From Colwellia polaris (lineage in GTDB: Archaea > Nanohalarchaeota > Nanosalinia > Nanosalinales > Nanosalinaceae): 14,667 nucleotides of DNA. The number at the start of each line of letters is the position of its first letter. Position 1 is the stretch's first letter. The stretch is taken from positions 1 through 14,667 of the forward strand of contig JBLGBK010000015.1 of NCBI GenBank assembly GCA_047617785.1, read 5' to 3'. The notes beneath the pieces were generated by a model. The model was given only the letters and a program-made list of their open reading frames with translations, was not told the origin of the DNA and ran no database searches. Positions 1 through 12,726 of the stretch are shown here, piece by piece. Position numbers and translations under genes: made by a program.

Positions 1-2391
1 GGTTATTTGTAGGATTTCGTTTCTGAGGAGGTTGCTTATTTGGGAGGTGGTTGTTGAGTAGCTTGTTGTTACTATTTCGATTCTATTTGAGGAAATTGTT
101 CTGAAGGAGTTAGTGGTAGGTACTAATGATTCGCTTATAGATCTACCCAAATCTGAGGTGATGGTTTCTTGGTCTTCTGGTATTATTTGTTGCTGTAGTA
201 GTCTTGCGATGTCTGTAGCTCTTGTTATTTCACTTTCTGAATTCAAAGTTTCTAATTGGGTTCTCAAGTTTGTGAGTGCTCTTGAACTAGTTGTGCCTAT
301 ATTGGCTGTTAAACTATACTCTCTCTGTACACTTTCTGTTCTACTTCTCTCTATACCTGTTGAAATAATATCTGAGATTATTCTGTTTCCTGCGACTGCT
401 CTTGTAAAGCTCCCTGTGAAATAGGATGTTGTTTCGTCTGTTCTAATTAAGTTGCTAGCTGAGTTTTGAACATTATTTGTTTGGAAGTTTTCTGATAGGA
501 GTCTTGACTCTGTTAGGCTTCTTAATTCGGATGTTAGGGTTTCAAAGTTGGTATTCTCTATTCTGTTGATTGACGATGTTCTTTGTCTGTTTTCGTAGTA
601 GTCCATTGCCAAATTTTCAAGTCTTTCCAAAAATATTTGGCTTTCAACGTTTCCCTCGCCTACAATTGTTTCCATAATAGATCTGCTGTTTGCTAAGTTT
701 CTGTTAGAATTGATTTCTAAACCTGTCGACTGAGAAAGTATTCTAGCTATATCTTCTGCTCTCGAAAAGCTGCTAGTTGTCGCTATATTTGCACTGTTCT
801 CTCTAAAATTGGTTATAGTTCTCGATACTGTCCGTTCACTCGATATTATTTCGTTAGTAATTCTTTCTTGTAGGGTCTGTCGTTGTATAGATGTTCTGCT
901 TAAAATAGTTGACCTAATATCTCTTTCTCCATCTAATATACGGTTTATGTCTTCTTGGTATTCAAGTTCTTGAGTTAATAATCTGGCGTTTATAAGGGAT
1001 CTCACTGCCGATGATTCGGCTGATAAACTCTCTCTAACTGATCTTATACTATTTAATGTTCTAAATTGATTTATTTGAGATGTAACTGTGTCTGCGACCA
1101 ATCTCTGAACGTTTGAATTACGTGTAGCGGTATTTTCTAACGTCAAAGTTCGCTCGAATAATCTTGAAGTTACTAGAGATCTTTCAGTGTTGCTTGATTG
1201 TAGTATTTCTTCTGTGGTTATTCTTTGAATTATTGTTTGTAGGGATTGTGTGTCTGTAATATCTATTGCTGTATTCTCTAATCTTAGCTGCGTTAGTTCT
1301 CTGAGGCTTTCGATGTTAGAGGAATATGTCTGGCTTATGGTTCTTGATCCTGCAACAATTCTTGCTTCTTCAATACTTTGGACGTATGTATCTTCTAGTA
1401 AACGCTGAAGAGTGCCAGACTGGGTAAGATCGCTGTTGGCTCCTAAGCTTTCTGTCAATTTCCTATATGAAATTATTTCTCGAGCTATATTGCTGCTTGA
1501 TTCAAAGCTCTCTGAAATTGATCGGGAGTTGAGAGCTGTTCTTAGAGAAGTGTCTTCAAATCCGGTGAATTGATTGAATTCTCTATTAATAGCTGAGCTT
1601 ATATCTTGGTCGCTAGTGTAATAGAAATTGTCTATGAATTCTCTGAGGTTGGTCAACTGTCTTATGTTTGAGTCAGTATTGTAAATCTGATCTGTAACTG
1701 TTCTAAATCCTCTGAATTCTCTGTATGAGGCGGGTGAGGTGGTATTGAGATTCTGGCTTATTGTTCTTAGATTTGAGAGAAATCTGTTTTCTGCGCTATT
1801 GAGATTAAAGGAGGAAGTTAGTAGTCTTTCTGCTATTATTCTTCGCGAAGGCGAATCAGATATGTTATAGTTTTCCTCAAACATTCTTTGTAAAGAGGTT
1901 GATCTAGAGTTTAGATCGGCTACACTTAGAGAGATTGGATTGTTTCGGAATATGTTCTGTGAGCTGGTAAGTGTTTCTTGATATTCAAATGATTCGATTT
2001 GGTCTCGGAAACCTTGGTAAAATGAAAATTCATCTAGATTAATTTCTACTGCTTGACTGAAGACTCTTGTAAGATCATTTATTCTTACCCCGGGAGCTTT
2101 GAAACTGGCGCCGGTTATAATAGGTCTCTGATTATCTGCTCCTCTTGGATTTTTTTCATCAGCAGATATACTTTCATCTTGCTCCGGTTTGATAACTTGT
2201 CTTCTCTTTGAAGTTTCTGCAGACGTGATTGTTTCTTTACTTAGCCTGCTGAAAGCTGTTTTCCTAGAGTTATTTGTATCTGCATTAATTTTCTGCGCAT
2301 AACTTCTGCCTCCTTTAAAATCACTTCTTAATTTCTTGAATCTAAAGGAGAATTTTTCTGTTTTAGTTCTATTGTATTTGTAATTTTCTCT
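1..2391 (-). repeat. Degenerate protein-level tandem repeat, 20 aa (60 nt) period, about 40 units visible
   Basis: Consecutive units: R-EFNQFTGFEDTSL-R-TALNS / R-SISESFESSSNIA-R-EIISY / R-KLTESLGANSDLT-Q-SGTLQ / R-LLEDTYVQSIEEA-R-IVAGS / R-TISQTYSSNIESL-R-ELTQL. Arg codons (tct on +) recur in the same columns of the 60-nt lines. An occasional unit is 21 aa. Confidence 0.88.
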
Positions 2392-3780
2392 CGCTCTGAA
2401 GGATTTGGTCTGTGTTGATTGTGTGTTGCCTGAGCTATCGTTGTACCATATTCTCCAGTGAATAGATTTATTTCCTTTTATGCTCTCATTTTTCCAATTG
2501 AAAGAAGTGGTTTTCCATGAATCTACTGAGGAGAGCTGTATGGGAGAACCATAATTTTCTGTCTTATTCTGCCAGGCACCTGTCTCGTTAGTAGCAAGTT
2601 TTGCAGACTCTAATTCATAATTATCTCTACCTTCTGCTTCCAATCTTATACTATCTTTAAAGGTCATTAGAGAGCGATTTTGCTGAGGATTTCTTGTTTC
2701 AGGAGGGGTGAGATCCACAACTTCAAAGCTTCCTGTACTGTTGCTCCAAAGGTTGTGGTTGTCTTTAGCCCAGATTGTATAGGACCATTCTCCTAGCGAG
2801 GTTCTCTCACTAAAGCTATAATTGGCTTCAAAAGTCCCTGAGTCGTTTCTAAGATTTGTAGAGGAAATATTGGACATTGAAGAGTTTTTCAACCTTATAT
2901 CGCCATTAGAATCTCTTATCGTTACTTGGACCTCTACTAAGGTATCTATATCTGTCACGTTACTCCTCAAAGTCAGTTTATCGCTGTCTACAAATAGGTT
3001 TGTGTTATTTAGATCTGGGTAGTTAGTTCCGTTAAATGTCTTTTTAGTATCTATTAGAGGTTTCTCGTTAGGAGTATAAGTTATTAATATGCTTCCATCA
3101 CTCCCGTCTGATCCGCTTGTGTCTCCTCCGGGGGCGCCTCCTCCCTCAATTTGATTGATTAACTCTACTTCGCTACTTGTCAGACCTGAACCCGGATTTC
3201 CTGATGTCCCGGCCTCATCTCCTCCGGGGGCTGCTCCTCCCACAGTACCGTTTGCTCCTGCACCGGCATTAGCTGTACAGCCATCAAGAAACCCTGCTTC
3301 TCCTTCTCCTCCAGAACCTCCTCCTGCAACTATCAAATCATTGCCTGTGCCAGGATCTACGACGGCGGACATACCTCCTCCGCCACCACTGGTCCCACAA
3401 TCTCCGGGGGCGGTTTGACCTGTTGCTCGGCCCCAACCGCCGCTTCCGCTATTGCTGCTTCCGCCTCCTGCTTCGGCAGGATAGATTTCGATTTGCGTTC
3501 TTGATGCTGTGGATATATTTCCTTCTATAAATCCTCCTGATCCACCTTGGTATCCGTCTCCTGAACCTCCTCCTCCAGGACCATTAACTTCTACGTTAAT
3601 TTCTTTATTTACCACGCCTTTCTCAGGTTTAGTCCAAGTCTGCGCTTGATTGTTACCTTCGTAGATAAATGATTCGGTCTGCTGGGTTGGATAAGCTGTT
3701 GCAGAAGTTATAGCTGAGGCTGTAAATATGATTAAAAGTGCTATTAGTAGTGCTGTTCGGAAAGATTCTGAGGTCAGCAT
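1..3780 (-). CDS. Giant secreted surface/fibre protein, partial (at least 1260 aa; 3' end lies beyond the window). Signal peptide, Gly-rich head, two Ig-like domains, 20-aa repeat stalk
   Basis: Manual translation from ATG at 3780 (in-frame TAG upstream at 3811-3813) shows no stop down to base 1. It begins MLTSESFRTALLIALLIIFTASAITSATA (signal peptide). Gly-rich domain ~3660-3076: QTWTKP..VEVNGPGGGGSG..GGSGGFIEG..GGGGGMSAV..LIVAGGGSGG..GSDGSILITY. Beta-rich domains follow with VVDLTPP and WRIWYNDSSGN. It is absent from the ORF track because it has no stop codon in the window. Confidence 0.93.
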   Translation of the reverse strand, partial: MLTSESFRTALLIALLIIFTASAITSATAYPTQQTESFIYEGNNQAQTWTKPEKGVVNKEINVEVNGPGGGGSGDGYQGGSGGFIEGNISTASRTQIEIYPAEAGGGSSNSGSGGWGRATGQTAPGDCGTSGGGGGMSAVVDPGTGNDLIVAGGGSGGEGEAGFLDGCTANAGAGANGTVGGAAPGGDEAGTSGNPGSGLTSSEVELINQIEGGGAPGGDTSGSDGSDGSILITYTPNEKPLIDTKKTFNGTNYPDLNNTNLFVDSDKLTLRSNVTDIDTLVEVQVTIRDSNGDIRLKNSSMSNISSTNLRNDSGTFEANYSFSERTSLGEWSYTIWAKDNHNLWSNSTGSFEVVDLTPPETRNPQQNRSLMTFKDSIRLEAEGRDNYELESAKLATNETGAWQNKTENYGSPIQLSSVDSWKTTSFNWKNESIKGNKSIHWRIWYNDSSGNTQSTQTKSFRARENYKYNRTKTEKFSFRFKKLRSDFKGGRSYAQKINADTNNSRKTAFSRLSKETITSAETSKRRQVIKPEQDESISADEKNPRGADNQRPIITGASFKAPGVRINDLTRVFSQAVEINLDEFSFYQGFRDQIESFEYQETLTSSQNIFRNNPISLSVADLNSRSTSLQRMFEENYNISDSPSRRIIAERLLTSSFNLNSAENRFLSNLRTISQNLNTTSPASYREFRGFRTVTDQIYNTDSNIRQLTNLREFIDNFYYTSDQDISSAINREFNQFTGFEDTSLRTALNSRSISESFESSSNIAREIISYRKLTESLGANSDLTQSGTLQRLLEDTYVQSIEEARIVAGSRTISQTYSSNIESLRELTQLRLENTAIDITDTQSLQTIIQRITTEEILQSSNTERSLVTSRLFERTLTLENTATRNSNVQRLVADTVTSQINQFRTLNSIRSVRESLSAESSAVRSLINARLLTQELEYQEDINRILDGERDIRSTILSRTSIQRQTLQERITNEIISSERTVSRTITNFRENSANIATTSSFSRAEDIARILSQSTGLEINSNRNLANSRSIMETIVGEGNVESQIFLERLENLAMDYYENRQRTSSINRIENTNFETLTSELRSLTESRLLSENFQTNNVQNSASNLIRTDETTSYFTGSFTRAVAGNRIISDIISTGIERSRTESVQREYSLTANIGTTSSRALTNLRTQLETLNSESEITRATDIARLLQQQIIPEDQETITSDLGRSISESLVPTTNSFRTISSNRIEIVTTSYSTTTSQISNLLRNEILQIT

Positions 3781-3795
3781 TTTTCCAGCTTCTTG

Positions 3796-3822
3796 ATATT
3801 TTCCTATGATCTAGGAAAATAT
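3796..3822. promoter_or_regulatory. Perfect 11-bp inverted repeat just upstream of the giant gene; candidate operator or 5' hairpin
   Basis: atattttccta-tgatc-taggaaaatat, ending 15 nt before the ATG at 3780. A TATA-like ttttatt lies on the minus strand near 3836-3844. Confidence 0.45.
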
Positions 3823-3904
3823 GAGTTTTACTAGAATAAAAAATTGTTACAATTAACCGTTTAGATAGATTTAAACGAGTAAGAATACTTTAGCTCAAGA
3901 ATAG

Positions 3905-3942: not shown

Positions 3943-4566
3943 CTAGTTGCCTCCGTCGCTAATTGTGACGTTATGGGTAACTGTTAACTGATCTCCATCA
4001 AGCAGGTTAGCGTCCGGGAATGCGCCTCCTGAGATTAATTGGTTGCCGGCGTTATCAGATGCGTAGTTTAGTCCGGTTGTGTTGACTACCAATTGTTGAT
4101 CCTCGCCAAGGTTAGCGGTGAAAGTGTTCTGAACCTGGAATTCTCCGTCTCCGAAGACTGTTGTAGTTCCTTGAGTTCTCTCAAGATTGTACTGTGTGAT
4201 TTCTCCAGGTAGAACTGTATCGCCAGCTTGAGGAGCGGTTGTGTTACCAACTGATATGTACTGTGCCTCGTTGCTGTCACTTCCTTCTCCATTGTTGGCT
4301 GAGATCTGGCTTCTGATCCAGTTCTGTCCTTGATTGGTCAGGATGTTATGTTCCTTTTCTCTATATACTACTTCACCGTCTCTCTCTACTTCAACGGTAT
4401 AAACTCCTTCCCATTGACTGGAGTCTTCTGCAGAACTTGCTTTCTGCATAACGTCTCCGTTATCAAAAGCTGCTCCTGCTCCGAAGGAGACTACTAGTCC
4501 TAATGAAAGCAGAGCTACAAGTTGTCCTTGCGCACCCTGCCCTAAAATTTCCATTGGGTTTTCCAT
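3943..4566 (-). CDS. Secreted or membrane-anchored protein resembling phage tail-collar/tail-fibre attachment domains
   Basis: 207 aa with N-terminal hydrophobic segment LVALLSLGLVVSFGAGAA. Motif series HNILTNQG..WI, YISVGNTTAP..GDTVL.GEI...L.R, FTA, V..TGL, GDQLTVTHNVTI resembles phage tail-collar-like proteins (recognised by eye). TATA box at 4590-4595. Confidence 0.8.
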   Translation of the reverse strand: MENPMEILGQGAQGQLVALLSLGLVVSFGAGAAFDNGDVMQKASSAEDSSQWEGVYTVEVERDGEVVYREKEHNILTNQGQNWIRSQISANNGEGSDSNEAQYISVGNTTAPQAGDTVLPGEITQYNLERTQGTTTVFGDGEFQVQNTFTANLGEDQQLVVNTTGLNYASDNAGNQLISGGAFPDANLLDGDQLTVTHNVTISDGGN

Positions 4567-4598: not shown

Positions 4599-4907
4599 TT
4601 AAATATATTCGCGCCAGAGAATCAATGAACCTGCCAGCAAAACTGGTATGAAAGATTTGTTGATGATATCCATGTTTATGCTAAGTGTATGGACAGGAAG
4701 CCGTAAGGTACCGAAATAATACTCACGCATTACTGTGGCACTGACTTCTGTACATACTCCGACCTGATCGGTCACCCCTCTCTCAGGATCCACCTGAGGG
4801 TCACACTGTGTTGATATATTTCCAGGCAGTGCAAAAACAGTAAGAATATACATAGGAATCATCAGAACTAAAGCTATAGAACCTATTTTCCTTTTCGATA
4901 AATCCAT
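4599..4907 (-). CDS. Small two-TM membrane protein (102 aa) with a two-Cys loop; hypothetical
   Basis: ATG at 4907 (MDLSKRKIGSIALVLMIPMYILTVFALP...) is preferred over the track's start at 4934, because a TATA-like tttgaa sits at 4930-4935. Hydrophobic segments at both ends and two Cys in the loop. Confidence 0.72.
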   Translation of the reverse strand: MDLSKRKIGSIALVLMIPMYILTVFALPGNISTQCDPQVDPERGVTDQVGVCTEVSATVMREYYFGTLRLPVHTLSINMDIINKSFIPVLLAGSLILWREYI

Positions 4908-5274
4908 ATCTTTAGATGCTACTAGGGTATTCAAATTACTTTTCCCTCATATTCTAGACAGCGAGCTATATCGTCCTACCCTGTATAGGCCAGAAAAAGG
5001 ACCGGGAAAATAACTTGCCAGAGATACACAAGCACAATCTGATCGAGGAGTCAGAAGAGGGTTTTAAATCTGTCTTTTCAGGATGCCTCCTAGAATTTAT
5101 AGACTCTATGTGAGGAAAACTCAATTCCTACCACTAAGTTCTGAGTTGCTGGATACAGAGGAATTTAGAACGAACATGTCTAAGTATGCGAAATATAACT
5201 TAGGTCTACTTCTAGTTTCTGTTTTTGAGCTCTGTTGAGTTTGATTTAAGTTTTTGAAGGGGTAAGTCTCATCC

Positions 5275-6597
5275 ATGAACGTTGTATTTATTGTACTGGA
5301 TACCTTGAGAAGTGATCGTCTTTCAATATATAATGAGGAAATTGATTTCACCGATAATATAGAGGAGTTTGCGGAGAAATCGCTCGTCTATGATAATGCT
5401 ATGGCGCAGGCACCGTGGACTCTGCCTTCTCATGCATCAATGTTTACGGGAGAGTATCCATGGGAACATAATGCAACTCAGAAAAACCTGTTTTTGACAA
5501 CTGATAAGACGACCCTAGCAGAGAAGTTTACAGAGGCAGGATACAGCACAGCAAGCTACACCGCCAATACCTGGGTTTCGCCCTACACTGGTATCACGAA
5601 AGGATTTGAGGATACTGATAACATGTTCGGCTGGATAGACAACAACTTCATCTCCGATAAGGCAAGTAAGCTATGGATATGGGCGAACCAGGGACGTACA
5701 AAAAAGATAACAGAAACAATAGTAGATCTAGGAGAGTACCTGCAATGGGGTACAGATAGAGGAAAAATCTCAAAAACCCCTGAAACACTTGACAAAGCTG
5801 AAGAATTTATTGAAAGCAATGAAGAAGATGACTTCTTCCTTTTCATGAACTTGCTTGATGCACATCTACCCTATTATCCTCCGGAAGACTACAGAGAGAA
5901 ACATGCATCGAATGTCGAGCCATCAGAAGTCTGTCAAAGAGCTCATGAACATAACGCAGATCTGGTGAATGCTGACTTCGAATCTATAAGGAAGCTGTAT
6001 GATGCAGAGGCAGACTATCTTGATGACCAGCTTGGGCGTTTCTTCGACTATATGGAGGAACAAGGATTGATAGAAGATACCGTTTTTGTCATAGCATCAG
6101 ATCATGGGGAGAACTTGGGAGAAGATGACATGTATGGACACCAGTTCTCAGTATCTGAAGAAGTAGTAAACATCCCTCTACTGATTAGAGCGCCAGGTGT
6201 TGAGAGCGGAAGAGTAGAAACCCCTTTCGAACTCAGAGAACTCTACAACGTTATACCACGACTGACAGAAATTGAGGATGCTGAAGCTGATCTATCAGGC
6301 GTTAAATATGCCTTAGGAGGCTATGAATATCCTGTTATGGAACTCAAGAATGTTCCTGAAGATAAGCAAGACCTCGGAAAGCAATTACGCTTTGTACGCT
6401 CCGAAAAAAAGAAACTGATCAAAGAAGGTCAGGAAGATGCGTACTATCGAATGATTGATCTAGAGGAAAACGAAGAAATAGATGTCAAAGAACAGTTCCG
6501 GCAGAAAATCGATAGAATAGGAGAGGCCTCACAGGGAGATACCGATATTGACGATGAGCAAGTAAAAGACAGGCTTGAAGATCTAGGTTACATGTGA
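5275..6597 (+). CDS. Sulfatase-like / alkaline phosphatase superfamily protein
   Basis: IVLDTLRSD metal site, APWTLPSHASMFTG active-site motif, DAHLPY, ASDHGE, GHQ and the C-terminal RLEDLGY typical of haloarchaeal members. Acidic. TATA at 5245-5250. Confidence 0.92.
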   Translation: MNVVFIVLDTLRSDRLSIYNEEIDFTDNIEEFAEKSLVYDNAMAQAPWTLPSHASMFTGEYPWEHNATQKNLFLTTDKTTLAEKFTEAGYSTASYTANTWVSPYTGITKGFEDTDNMFGWIDNNFISDKASKLWIWANQGRTKKITETIVDLGEYLQWGTDRGKISKTPETLDKAEEFIESNEEDDFFLFMNLLDAHLPYYPPEDYREKHASNVEPSEVCQRAHEHNADLVNADFESIRKLYDAEADYLDDQLGRFFDYMEEQGLIEDTVFVIASDHGENLGEDDMYGHQFSVSEEVVNIPLLIRAPGVESGRVETPFELRELYNVIPRLTEIEDAEADLSGVKYALGGYEYPVMELKNVPEDKQDLGKQLRFVRSEKKKLIKEGQEDAYYRMIDLEENEEIDVKEQFRQKIDRIGEASQGDTDIDDEQVKDRLEDLGYM

Positions 6598-6601
6598 TAT
6601 C

Positions 6602-7321
6602 ATGACTCAATTATCTGTAATTATACCGGCATATAACGATGCGGAACATCTAGAAGAGCTTCTTGAAACGGTCAGAGACCAGCAGTTCGAGGATTATGAA
6701 GTAATTGTTAAAGACGCTGAAAGTACCGACGATACGGAAGAAGTAGCTAAAAGCTTCGATGTTCAGTTTGTAAGTTCTGAAGATCATGGCCCTGGAGATG
6801 CCCGAAATCAGGGGGTTGAAAAGGCAGAAGGAGATATAGTACTTTTCCTAGACGCTGATACCCGTCTAATGCATGAGAAAGTCTTCGATAATGTAATTGA
6901 AACCATGCAAGATGACTCTGTAGTAGGAGGCTCATCAACATGGAAGACCTATGACACAAACATTCGAGGGAAACTAATGCTTGGCGCAGGTTCTTTCATG
7001 ATGAAAATTGCCAATATGACAGGAGTAATGACTGCAGGAGTTGGAACCTTCATGTTTGTTGACAGAAAGGTCTTCCAGCATATAGGAGGCTATGATGCAG
7101 AACTTCCATATCATGAAGATCATGCCTTGCTTGAGGAGCTGGAAGAATATGGAGAGATAAAGATACTTGATAAACAAGTTTGGGTCTCGGGAAGAAGAGT
7201 ATCACAGCGAGGTATGATAGGAACGTTCATGGATTATATTCCACCATCTCTTAACTACATGGTTGGGCGAGAAGAGTATGTTAAAGAAAAGTATACTTTT
7301 CGCTCATCAAGCGGCAATTAA
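6602..7321 (+). CDS. Glycosyltransferase family 2
   Basis: LSVIIPAYN, EVIVKDAESTDDT, GPGDARNQG, LFLDAD (DxD), GGYD...EDH, SGRR. Starts 4 nt after the sulfatase stop, so probably an operon. Confidence 0.93.
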   Translation: MTQLSVIIPAYNDAEHLEELLETVRDQQFEDYEVIVKDAESTDDTEEVAKSFDVQFVSSEDHGPGDARNQGVEKAEGDIVLFLDADTRLMHEKVFDNVIETMQDDSVVGGSSTWKTYDTNIRGKLMLGAGSFMMKIANMTGVMTAGVGTFMFVDRKVFQHIGGYDAELPYHEDHALLEELEEYGEIKILDKQVWVSGRRVSQRGMIGTFMDYIPPSLNYMVGREEYVKEKYTFRSSSGN

Positions 7322-7517: not shown

Positions 7518-8994
<1,477 letters not shown>

Positions 8995-11325: not shown

Positions 11326-12726
11326 TTAGCTGCAGTCGCTGTAACCTGTTGCCTCGTTTCCATCTGCTTGATCTGTGACCTCTCTACACAGATAGAATCC
11401 ATTTGAATAACTAGACTGGAATCTGAATGTGAATGTTTCTTGGTAATCTCCGCTGCCAAATTCCGTAGTTCCACTGAGACCTGTTGCTTGTTCTACATTG
11501 TTGACTGTAATATTGGCTTCTTCAAGATTATTGGCGGGGTCGGTTGCTTCCCATTCTATATCATATCTTGCTCCTCTACCCCTATTACTATTGTCTGAAA
11601 CTGTGAAATCTACTATTTCCGGCTGCTGGTAGATGTCGATAGTTTTGCTACTTGTTCTTCCTTCATATTCTATTCCAATCTCCTGTCCTGTTCCAGCATC
11701 TACTTCTGCACTGTCTAGGACGGTGTTGAAGGTAACAGTCTTCGTTTCATCTTCTACTTCTACTTGTTGGAATTCGATTACTTCGTAATCCGCGCCTTCA
11801 GCACCTGTTATATCCGAACCCAATCTTAGCTGTGCGTTATCGCTGCTAGAAGGCCCGTTACTTGTAATCTCGGCTGAAGCTTCTATTTCTGTGTCCTGAT
11901 ATCCTGTATCAGGGGCGTCTATATTTGATACTACGAAATCCTGACTTGGTTCCTGAACAGTTACTGTATCTGAAGATGTCTCATTATTGCTTCGTACCTC
12001 TACAGTATAGTCTCCAGTCGAACCTGTTGTATAAGTGAAAGTCCCGGAAGAGGAGTCTCCAGGCTCAAGTTCTACATTCAAGCTTTCTTCTACTGTTCCA
12101 TCGTATCTGAATTCTATAGTCTGTGTTGAAGATTTAGTTCCTGTGTTTTCTATATTATAGTCTACTTCAAGAATTTCTCCTTCCTCCACAGGAGAGTTAG
12201 TATCTTCTATTGTCGTTGCCAAATAGGAGGTGTCTTCAGAAGGTTCAAATGGATCGTAGCTTTCAGAGAATATCTCTGCATTTGTAGTAATAGTTCCTGT
12301 TGCTTTTTGGCTAGGAAGAATATCACCGCGATCATAAGTCAGTTCAACATTATAGGTGTTACAGCTGTTGCTCTTCTCAAATCCATTAATATTGAAAACC
12401 TCTGTTTCTCCGGAAGTGATTATCTGAGCATCAGGGCTTGCAACAATTGTCTCACCAGTATCTCGATTCTTAACCTGTATTTCTTTCAACTGGTTGTAGA
12501 ACCCCTGTGAATCCTGGTTTTCCACAGAAAGCATCATATCAGCACTGTCTGCAGACATTCCAAAGTCTTCAACTCGCAAGCTTTGACCAGTGAACCCTGA
12601 GACAGAATCTTGGCAAAAAGCTGCACCTGTAGAACTGTATACTATGCCAGAGACCATGGCGACGGCCGCAAGCATCCAACCATAGGTTGCCAGATACTCT
12701 ATAGCTGCCTGCCCTTTGAAAGCCAT
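11326..12726 (-). CDS. Class III signal peptide (type IV pilin-like) protein with C-terminal CARDB/Ig-like domains
   Basis: MAFKG|QAAIEYLATYGWMLAAVAMVSGIVY prepilin cleavage motif plus TM helix. A Cys-containing pilin-like domain follows, then a CARDB-like VDYNIENTG..LEPGDS..GDYTVEV segment and two more acidic beta domains. TATA at 12751-12756. Confidence 0.88.
   Translation of the reverse strand: MAFKGQAAIEYLATYGWMLAAVAMVSGIVYSSTGAAFCQDSVSGFTGQSLRVEDFGMSADSADMMLSVENQDSQGFYNQLKEIQVKNRDTGETIVASPDAQIITSGETEVFNINGFEKSNSCNTYNVELTYDRGDILPSQKATGTITTNAEIFSESYDPFEPSEDTSYLATTIEDTNSPVEEGEILEVDYNIENTGTKSSTQTIEFRYDGTVEESLNVELEPGDSSSGTFTYTTGSTGDYTVEVRSNNETSSDTVTVQEPSQDFVVSNIDAPDTGYQDTEIEASAEITSNGPSSSDNAQLRLGSDITGAEGADYEVIEFQQVEVEDETKTVTFNTVLDSAEVDAGTGQEIGIEYEGRTSSKTIDIYQQPEIVDFTVSDNSNRGRGARYDIEWEATDPANNLEEANITVNNVEQATGLSGTTEFGSGDYQETFTFRFQSSYSNGFYLCREVTDQADGNEATGYSDCS

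Follow-up and report, generated by a model that had tools for sequence, protein, structure and literature searches.

A giant nanohaloarchaeal protein with a long stalk of arginine-anchored 20-residue repeats, probably exposed outside the cell

At one end of contig JBLGBK010000015.1, a 14,667-nucleotide (nt) stretch of a nanohaloarchaeal assembly (GCA_047617785.1) that we call the window, lies the 5' part of a gene for a very large protein built around an array of 20-residue, arginine-anchored repeats. With moderate confidence, we favor the reading that this array is the extracellular shaft of a type-I membrane protein, that it represents an undescribed repeat family, and that its unit is probably helical. 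In the proposed architecture, a Sec-type signal peptide would be followed by a Gly-rich and Ig-like head, ~93 repeat units, a junction and linker, two Ig-like domains, a membrane helix with the motif RRKRR, and a tail with a C2H2 pattern, and the shaft would hold a lineage-variable head away from the cell. The parts of this gene that are encoded in the window are as follows.

1..3780, minus strand: 5' part (1260 codons) of the giant surface-protein gene, from the open reading frame (ORF) list and translation; ATG at 3780, open at the 3' end
3694..3780, minus strand: predicted signal peptide, residues 1-29, with Arg8, the core ALLIALLIIF and A-T-A before Tyr30
3076..3618, minus strand: Gly-rich N-terminal head, residues ~55-235, delimited by composition
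2371..3060, minus strand: Ig-like region, residues 241-470, rich in N-glycosylation sites, with a weak MG2 match (E 0.013-0.045)
1..2340, minus strand: window part of the 20-residue Arg-anchored repeat stalk, residues 481-1260, 39 units
1..540, minus strand: first copy of a diverged 600-nt (10-unit) duplication, whose 103-nt exact core spans the contig break

Periodicity and continuity of the repeat array

Autocorrelation of Arg positions across residues 471-1260 counted 55 pairs separated by 20 residues, where 7.7 would be expected (z 18.7), with further maxima at lag 40 (z 17.9) and lag 60 (z 18.6) and side peaks at lags 6 and 14 (z ~8), in line with the 20-residue periodicity proposed in a preliminary description of this DNA. 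That description had placed about 40 units between positions 1 and 2391. We count 39 in the window, 38 of them with the anchor Arg; repeats are indeed present over this region, but it covers just the first 40% of an array that continues for 54 further units on a second contig of the same genome bin, C2. The whole array comprises 93 units and ~1,860 residues, with the anchor Arg in 91 of the 93. As first claimed, the register is nearly perfect: it shifts only once, by +1 near residue 685, after which the array is free of insertions and deletions (indels) up to residue 2340. In a profile of 83 units from residues 681-2340 (window and C2), Arg occupies position 13 in 82 units, I/L position 19 in 57 and E/Q/D position 17 in 49, while hydrophobic residues favor positions 1, 9, 11, 14, 15 and 19. 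This agrees with the consensus originally given, R-x-[ILF]-x-[EQD]-x-[FILY]-x7-R-x5, except that its second Arg (R7) appears in only 41 of the 83 units.

With S 14.3, T 11.4, N 8.2, G 2.5 and P 1.1%, residues 471-1260 likewise match the initial account of a segment rich in Ser, Thr and Asn and poor in Gly and Pro, and the stalk has 9.0% Arg and 0.5% Lys. It is also less acidic than its neighbors, as had been stated, with a net charge per residue of -0.03 compared to -0.145 for the C-terminal ectodomain and -0.04 to -0.14 for seven of the nine other ORFs in the window. The gene had been missed by the ORF track, as noted at the time, and its minus-strand ORF appears only when open ends are allowed. 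At the DNA level, Tandem Repeats Finder returned 0 rows for window positions 1..3780, and mean pairwise identity across 29 units was 0.37 against 0.29 for shuffled sequence, which upholds the reported loss of DNA identity between units; the exception is the single diverged 600-nt duplication. The suggestion of an old repeat under protein-level selection is supported. In four metagenome runs, the first 3 kb of the C2 part contained 24 variable sites (10 synonymous and 14 nonsynonymous, the changes being mainly conservative) and 0 indels, and 14 of the 18 DNA runs listed contained 78% or more of the words sampled from window positions 1-3900.

One alternative is that the array is a flexible, largely unfolded tether rich in Ser, Thr and Asn rather than a rod. 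The polar composition, a low language-model recognition score (927) and a second AlphaFold run with a pLDDT of 30 would all fit a tether of this kind, but unfolded spacers do not hold length and phase in the way seen here, where the anchor Arg is nearly invariant, hydrophobic positions such as I/L19 are fixed, the register shifts once over the entire array, the pattern is kept in 145 listed relatives, and no indel accompanies the 24 variable sites of the metagenome populations. We consider an unfolded tether very improbable.

The window is the entire contig C15 of genome bin G000 (787 kb, 22 contigs, 96.5% complete). The stalk gene leaves this contig at base 1 and resumes at base 128 of G000:C2, where its stop codon ends at C2:4693. 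Window positions 1-127 are the exact reverse complement of C2:1-127, with 56 bases of this 127-nt overlap falling outside the local repeat, and the joined frame is open and encodes a product of ~2,781 amino acids (aa). Orthologues that lie on single contigs have their parts in the same order, with 2690 aa in G068 (on a 133-kb contig) and 3574 aa in G065 (a closed 957-kb genome). We accepted the C15-C2 join because of this exact overlap, the open frame, and the corresponding order in the single-contig orthologues. The contig broke at the 103-nt core of the 600-nt duplication, the partner copy of which lies around C2 128-760. This core assembles as a contig of its own, at a depth 1.5-1.9x that of the flanking contigs in two runs. 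Separately, one low-depth metagenome contig connects position 656, where the 600-nt block ends, with position 57, where it begins, and represents either a third 600-nt copy in some strains or an assembly-graph artefact.

Flanking domains, glycosylation sites and the repeat family

The signal peptide and membrane helix were read by eye from the translations. From the topology that these two elements set, the stalk would lie outside the cell with the head distal. The stalk leads through a conserved junction and a Gly/Ser/Asp linker into two Ig-like domains with weak matches (HYDIN/VesB-like, E 0.0015; DUF11, E 0.098), which are followed by one membrane helix, RRKRR, and a ~108-aa tail that ends in C-x2-C-x12-H-x4-H. 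The corresponding tail of an orthologue, P0007, matches Pfam C2H2 zinc fingers (E 7.7e-9). Orthologue tails contain two Pfam C2H2 fingers and a coiled-coil-like end; the C2H2 pattern of the tail lies at C2 ~4620-4690, and a 23-residue stretch, 83% identical, is encoded at G000:C7:40129-40197.

On the N-terminal side, residues 1-240 are 24% Gly. No Pfam match was found for the Gly-rich head, nor any significant Pfam or PDB match for the head as a whole. One relative, P0010, carries the Pfam domain ALK_LTK_GRD beside the same 20-residue repeats, and by analogy the Gly-rich head may be a polyglycine-type binding domain. The Ig-like region (residues 241-470) is 52% identical to its orthologue in G068, and the orthologue heads diverge to the point that only residues 231-469 (G068) or 347-469 (G065 and G066) can be aligned; the last 441 aa are 43-48% identical among orthologues. 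A variable head on a retained shaft and anchor is the pattern that would be expected of a conserved mount with an exchangeable binding tip. With regard to the features of fibrillar adhesins, the export signal, the cell anchor, and the long tandem-repeat stalk between head and anchor are present; Pfam and PDB comparisons recognized no binding fold in the head, a place where relatives have LamG, CBM96 or MAM. The extracellular, fiber-like stalk of the preliminary description is thus sustained by the position of the repeats between signal peptide and head on one side and the C-terminal membrane anchor on the other, and further by relatives in which LamG, CBM96, MAM, beta-helix or PhoD domains stand N-terminal to the same repeat.

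A second line of evidence concerns N-glycosylation sites. The stalk contains 124 Asn and 431 Ser plus Thr residues, yet only 1 N-x-S/T site against 32.6 +/- 4.4 expected from column-preserving shuffles, 2000 of which never gave fewer than 18 sites. Five orthologue stalks repeat this pattern, with 1, 0, 0, 2 and 0 sites seen for 37.6, 26.2, 11.9, 9.2 and 3.0 expected, respectively. The Ig-like head region is enriched in these sites (14 vs. 6.4), as are the N-terminal parts of orthologues (16 vs. 8.4, 12 vs. 6.5, 22 vs. 9.8 and 17 vs. 7.7), and the control patterns Q/D/E-x-S/T, S/T-x-N, N-S/T and N-x-x-S/T all occurred at expectation. Among relatives, the 131 without an N-terminal hydrophobic segment have 475 sites for 472.8 expected, indicating that the unit tolerates the motif, and the 13 with such a segment have 48 for 111.9. 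An STT3/AglB-type transferase gene is present in the genome (78 bits, exceeding the cut-off). The simplest reading is that N-glycans on the exported stalk would be selected against, which would also argue that the stalk lies outside the cell; the likeliest cause for this purge is a need for the rod to self-associate or to remain slim.

To place the repeat in a broader context, we aligned sixteen 100-aa blocks without gaps and ran the resulting query profile (A2) against 1.84 billion representatives of clusters at 50% identity. This profile search, which had been proposed at the outset, matched 804 representatives (E<=1e-3), of which 204 reached E<=1e-10 and 10 reached E<=1e-30, including nanohaloarchaeal giants and lectin-headed proteins. 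The strongest Arg lag was 20 or 40 in 145 of 149 among the matches listed (own protein excluded), and the closest relatives, among matches with names, are hypothetical proteins of Nanohaloarchaea. Across the phylum, 8 of 70 genomes have profile matches, our own included: 3 of 5, 2 of 2 and 2 of 4 genomes in three other genera and 0 of 2 other genomes in its own genus, although absence is weak evidence here since repeats often drop out of bins. Within its own genome, the profile matches the stalk gene only.

Distant matches are mostly 500-1,500 aa long. Laminin_G_3 lies N-terminal to the repeats in 16 of the 55 matches scanned, and of 31 larger matches five have LamG, with CBM96, MAM, DUF2341, PhoD, Beta_helix and ALK_LTK_GRD also found. 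Some of these proteins resemble phage families. The C-terminal end of P0030 is a podophage GP4 gp77 domain (Pfam E 4.4e-14; PDB 8jou_D E 9e-5), gp77 being likened to tail collar proteins in PMC13730344, and phrog_12240, a family of unknown function, spans the repeats of P0029, P0030 and P0031 (E 3e-18 to 6e-10). A 580-aa stalk piece from the window matched 0 PHROG families at E<=1e-3. ESM Atlas neighbors had best scores of 0.87-0.89, below 0.9, and are unannotated clusters labelled viral, which we treat as leads only. A tblastn search of P0031 against a phage collection gave one match, to the LamG part only, and a viral-contig search based on P0030 found three loci with a 34-residue match and no ORF with 20-residue Arg spacing. 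The repeat family would form the region between lectin-type heads and C-terminal ends in other proteins, some of them matching phage families.

The repeat itself has no sequence match in Pfam, NCBIfam or PDB, so that the comparison with known repeat families suggested earlier turned up none, and our literature search found no paper describing this 20-residue Arg-anchored repeat. PDB matches of the query A5 to a viral fusion protein heptad region (E 0.005-0.6) and a designed helical filament (E 0.13) were judged compositional. From 1597 units of 148 proteins, the family consensus is h1-[ST]2-D3-s-h5-s-R7-x-h9-x-h11-x-R13-s-h15-s-[DE]17-s-h19-[GTS]20. Unit spacing is 20 residues at 2269 junctions, 21 at 69, 22 at 23 and 18 at 22, and indels concentrate at unit positions 1-12 and are rare at 13-18.

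Fold of the 20-residue unit

In our preferred reading, each unit would be a short amphipathic alpha-helix covering approximately positions 2-19 and broken at the unit boundary, with D/E3-R7 and R13-D/E17 paired at i/i+4 spacing within it, and the discrete helices would pack as a segmented bundle or hairpin stack. The distribution of hydrophobicity is consistent with such helices: across 1426 units from relatives, the hydrophobic moment was 1.09 at 100 degrees compared to 0.62 for shuffled units, and the maximum fell at 70-110 degrees in 1264 of these units and at 150-180 degrees in 69. The moment of 306 nanohaloarchaeal units peaks at 80-100 degrees, and in both unit sets the values at 150-180 degrees were below those of shuffled units. 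On a helical wheel, six hydrophobic positions occupy a 160-degree arc, opposite four charged positions that form two i/i+4 acid-Arg pairs; R13 and D/E17 co-occur in 80%, and D/E3 and R/K7 in 62%, of the 1426 units. In the nanohaloarchaeal units Pro is found at positions 1-6, 9 and 12 and never at 13-15, while positions 2-4 show an excess of S/T/D/E/N, and positions 20, 1 and 2 an excess of Gly. AlphaFold modelled five units as helix over residues 2-99, with a best pLDDT of 85.5. The "extended beta-type" fiber proposed in the preliminary description fits poorly with both this model and the moment; of its Arg-Glu/Asp ladder, the pairing remains plausible given the co-occurrence of these residues, but an i/i+4 spacing suits a helix and not a ladder of strands. 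Likewise, the length of at most ~260 nm given there would hinge on which fold the units adopt.

Several observations weigh against this reading. The five models of the 5-unit AlphaFold run spanned pLDDT values from 85.5 to 47.1, so the helical model is not robust, and a run with 10 units and 38 aligned rows reached a pLDDT of 30.1 with no secondary structure; the modelling that had been suggested therefore gave a helical monomer for five units and failed for ten, and a trimer prediction (three copies of a 200-aa stalk block) scored 0.00 and carries no weight either way. Mean Chou-Fasman values are neutral (alpha 1.006, beta 1.03) in a composition rich in Ser, Thr, Asn, Ile and Val, and across the family even unit positions hold mainly small residues, which can be read as strand alternation. 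Gly11 in 17% of nanohaloarchaeal units, together with Pro at 9 and 12, suggests a second break within some units, and the moment has twin maxima, at 80 and 100 degrees, separated by a dip at 90, which would also fit a period of 4 with a mid-unit phase flip. Covariation provided no contact signal between adjacent units: the raw mutual information between positions j and j+20 disappeared after within-protein permutation, and the strongest remaining couplings (7-9 and 7-11) look like alternative placements of the second Arg. Beyond the fold, the surface location and the function of the head are read from sequence, C15 and C2 were joined from a metagenome bin, the 600-nt block is present in an uncertain number of copies, the searches above recovered no viral contig encoding a LamG-repeat relative, and the viral origin of the distant relatives is likely on the basis of PHROG and Pfam matches together with Atlas scores below 0.9.

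The main alternative fold, and the one first put forward for this DNA, is a beta-solenoid or intertwined trimeric beta fiber in which the units are strands and the Arg and Asp/Glu residues stack in ladders. The strict unit length favors it (2269 junctions at 20 residues, with 69, 23 and 22 at 21, 22 and 18), as do the abundance of S, T, N, I and V, the small residues at even positions, the turn-prone sites at positions 10-12 and 20, and the resemblance of relatives to phage fibers. The AlphaFold monomer also failed when given a deeper alignment, and AlphaFold often fails on obligate trimeric beta fibers presented as monomers. Against strands, the units lack strand-type amphipathicity, with a moment at 150-180 degrees below shuffled in both data sets; by a geometric argument, the palindromic D3-R7 / R13-D17 arrangement would bring like charges to face each other in a hairpin or two-sided coil; no j to j+20 coupling was detected (mean z -1.9); and the repeat has no Pfam match to pentapeptide, beta-helix or fiber-repeat families. 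We regard a beta fold as unlikely. Pentapeptide repeats consist of A(D/N)LXX pentads with small and Leu/Phe residues inward and 20 residues per coil. A beta-helix of this type was rejected: period-5 hydrophobicity is strong (z 85.6), but there is no Pfam pentapeptide match and the inward positions hold Arg and Glu.

A continuous coiled coil was rejected as well, with z of -0.3 to -0.8 at periods of 3.5, 3.6, 3.636, 3.67 and 3.75 and peaks instead at 5, 4.0 and 3.33. Since there is no power at 3.5-3.75 and 20 residues rotate the helix face by ~200 degrees, a single continuous seam is excluded, and length variants in the family are mostly +1, +2 and -2, of the kind tolerated in loops, not the 3 or 4 of helical stutters. 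In Staphylothermus marinus, the archaeal surface protein tetrabrachion is anchored in the membrane by its C-terminal end and has a long helical stalk, a continuous four-stranded coiled coil with an 11-residue periodicity; the stalk unit described here is incompatible with such a continuous seam.

A last possibility combines helix and strand. Hartmann et al. 2016 (PMC4786415) report that a helix is interrupted by beta-layers where 2 or 6 residues are inserted into its heptads, one example being a prophage tail-fiber structure. The 20-residue unit could by analogy be parsed as 7+7+6, that is, a parallel trimeric alpha/beta coiled coil with two helical heptads and a three-residue beta-layer turning the chains by 120 degrees. 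The unit satisfies the 7n+2 or 7n+6 spacing rule and is one residue short of three heptads, the sole non-helical hydrophobic spacing named (19 to 1', two residues) falls at the unit boundary, the S/T/D that follow resemble an N-cap, and a helix-only monomer model would be expected for such a fiber. Two heptads plus six residues, the fiber context and N-cap-like residues after the break are thus shared with these structures (PMC4786415). However, no cyclic shift of the unit profile fits [aliphatic]-A-T-K-[polar]-[DE] or K-A-D-K-A-D when compared by hand, so that the published beta-layer motif (PMC4786415) is not matched by the stalk unit; the hydrophobic face is wide (8 of 19 positions) instead of a narrow a/d seam; and a second two-residue spacing (9 to 11) sits in mid-unit. 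We consider this alpha/beta arrangement distinctly improbable.

Neighboring genes and relation to known systems

Two small genes precede the stalk gene on the same strand, which together form a three-gene cassette.

3943..4566, minus strand: orf207, upstream partner gene with an N-terminal hydrophobic segment, immediately preceding the stalk gene in five further nanohaloarchaeal loci
4599..4934, minus strand: orf111, small membrane protein, first gene of the three-gene cassette, conserved in the same five loci

The orf111 product also has a hydrophobic N-terminal segment. Identity for the orf111/orf207 pair is 57-80% in G065, G066 and G068 and 34-38% in G048 and G049, and for orf207 alone 69-80% and 34-37% across these five loci. 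Neither protein has a Pfam match, and orf207 has no significant PDB match. The orf207 family comprises 19 members, all unnamed or hypothetical; the three with organism names are all nanohaloarchaeal, and their locus tags adjoin a stalk gene.

Elsewhere in the window, a sulfatase-family gene and a family-2 glycosyltransferase gene (5275-7321, plus strand) lie divergently beside the cassette, and could have surface glycans as substrates. The window also contains a complete archaeal 16S rRNA gene (7518-8994, minus strand; 1511 bits), and no 23S or 5S rRNA match or tRNA was found within the 14.7-kb contig. A gene at 11326-12726 (minus strand) encodes a 466-aa protein that begins like a pilin (MAFKGQAAIEYL...), contains a CARDB domain (E 3.4e-8) and is very acidic (net charge per residue -0.14).

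Little is known about how nanohaloarchaea attach to the haloarchaeal hosts on which they live. In PMC10266531, SPEARE-type nanohaloarchaeal giants are described as having ~75 Ig-like stalk domains and a cytoplasmic VirB4/TraG-like ATPase, and a role in host contact is proposed for them. These giants share with the present protein a signal peptide, a very long stalk of tandem units, and one membrane helix near the C-terminus followed by a cytoplasmic end (PMC10266531). They differ in that the stalk here is made of unnamed 20-residue units and the cytoplasmic end is ~108 aa long with a C2H2 pattern, and a Pfam search of the giant protein found neither an ATPase nor a tandem Ig-domain family. The LamG-headed phrog_12240 proteins P0029, P0030 and P0031 have the same Arg-anchored unit (profile E 1e-20 to 1e-23), the lag of 20 between Arg residues and an N-terminal head, but only 10-20 units, with Gly20 and Asp3, and neither signal peptide nor membrane anchor; one of them ends in a tail collar/adaptor-like domain, and their N-x-S/T sites are not depleted. 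Overall, we would classify the giant protein as a fibrillar surface protein whose stalk is built from a new kind of unit.

A more ambitious hypothesis, which we consider doubtful as a whole, is that the 20-residue unit defines a new fiber fold: an obligate self-associating, glycan-free rod, a quarter of a micrometer long in nanohaloarchaea (approximately a cell width), that would be a module common to tailed-virus fibers and the host-contact apparatus of DPANN archaea, with the two proteins encoded upstream as its assembly or anchoring partners.

If the preferred reading of an extracellular shaft holds, this protein would represent a second kind of nanohaloarchaeal giant surface protein, distinct from the Ig-stalk giants and combining a varying head with a conserved stalk. 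The loss of sites in stalks that stand beside enriched heads would be a clear example of an archaeal surface protein in which glycosylation is selected against. Finally, as the unit family is large, with 804 cluster representatives, and has neither a Pfam or NCBIfam entry nor a solved structure, a single structure would annotate many proteins, including viral-fiber-like ones.

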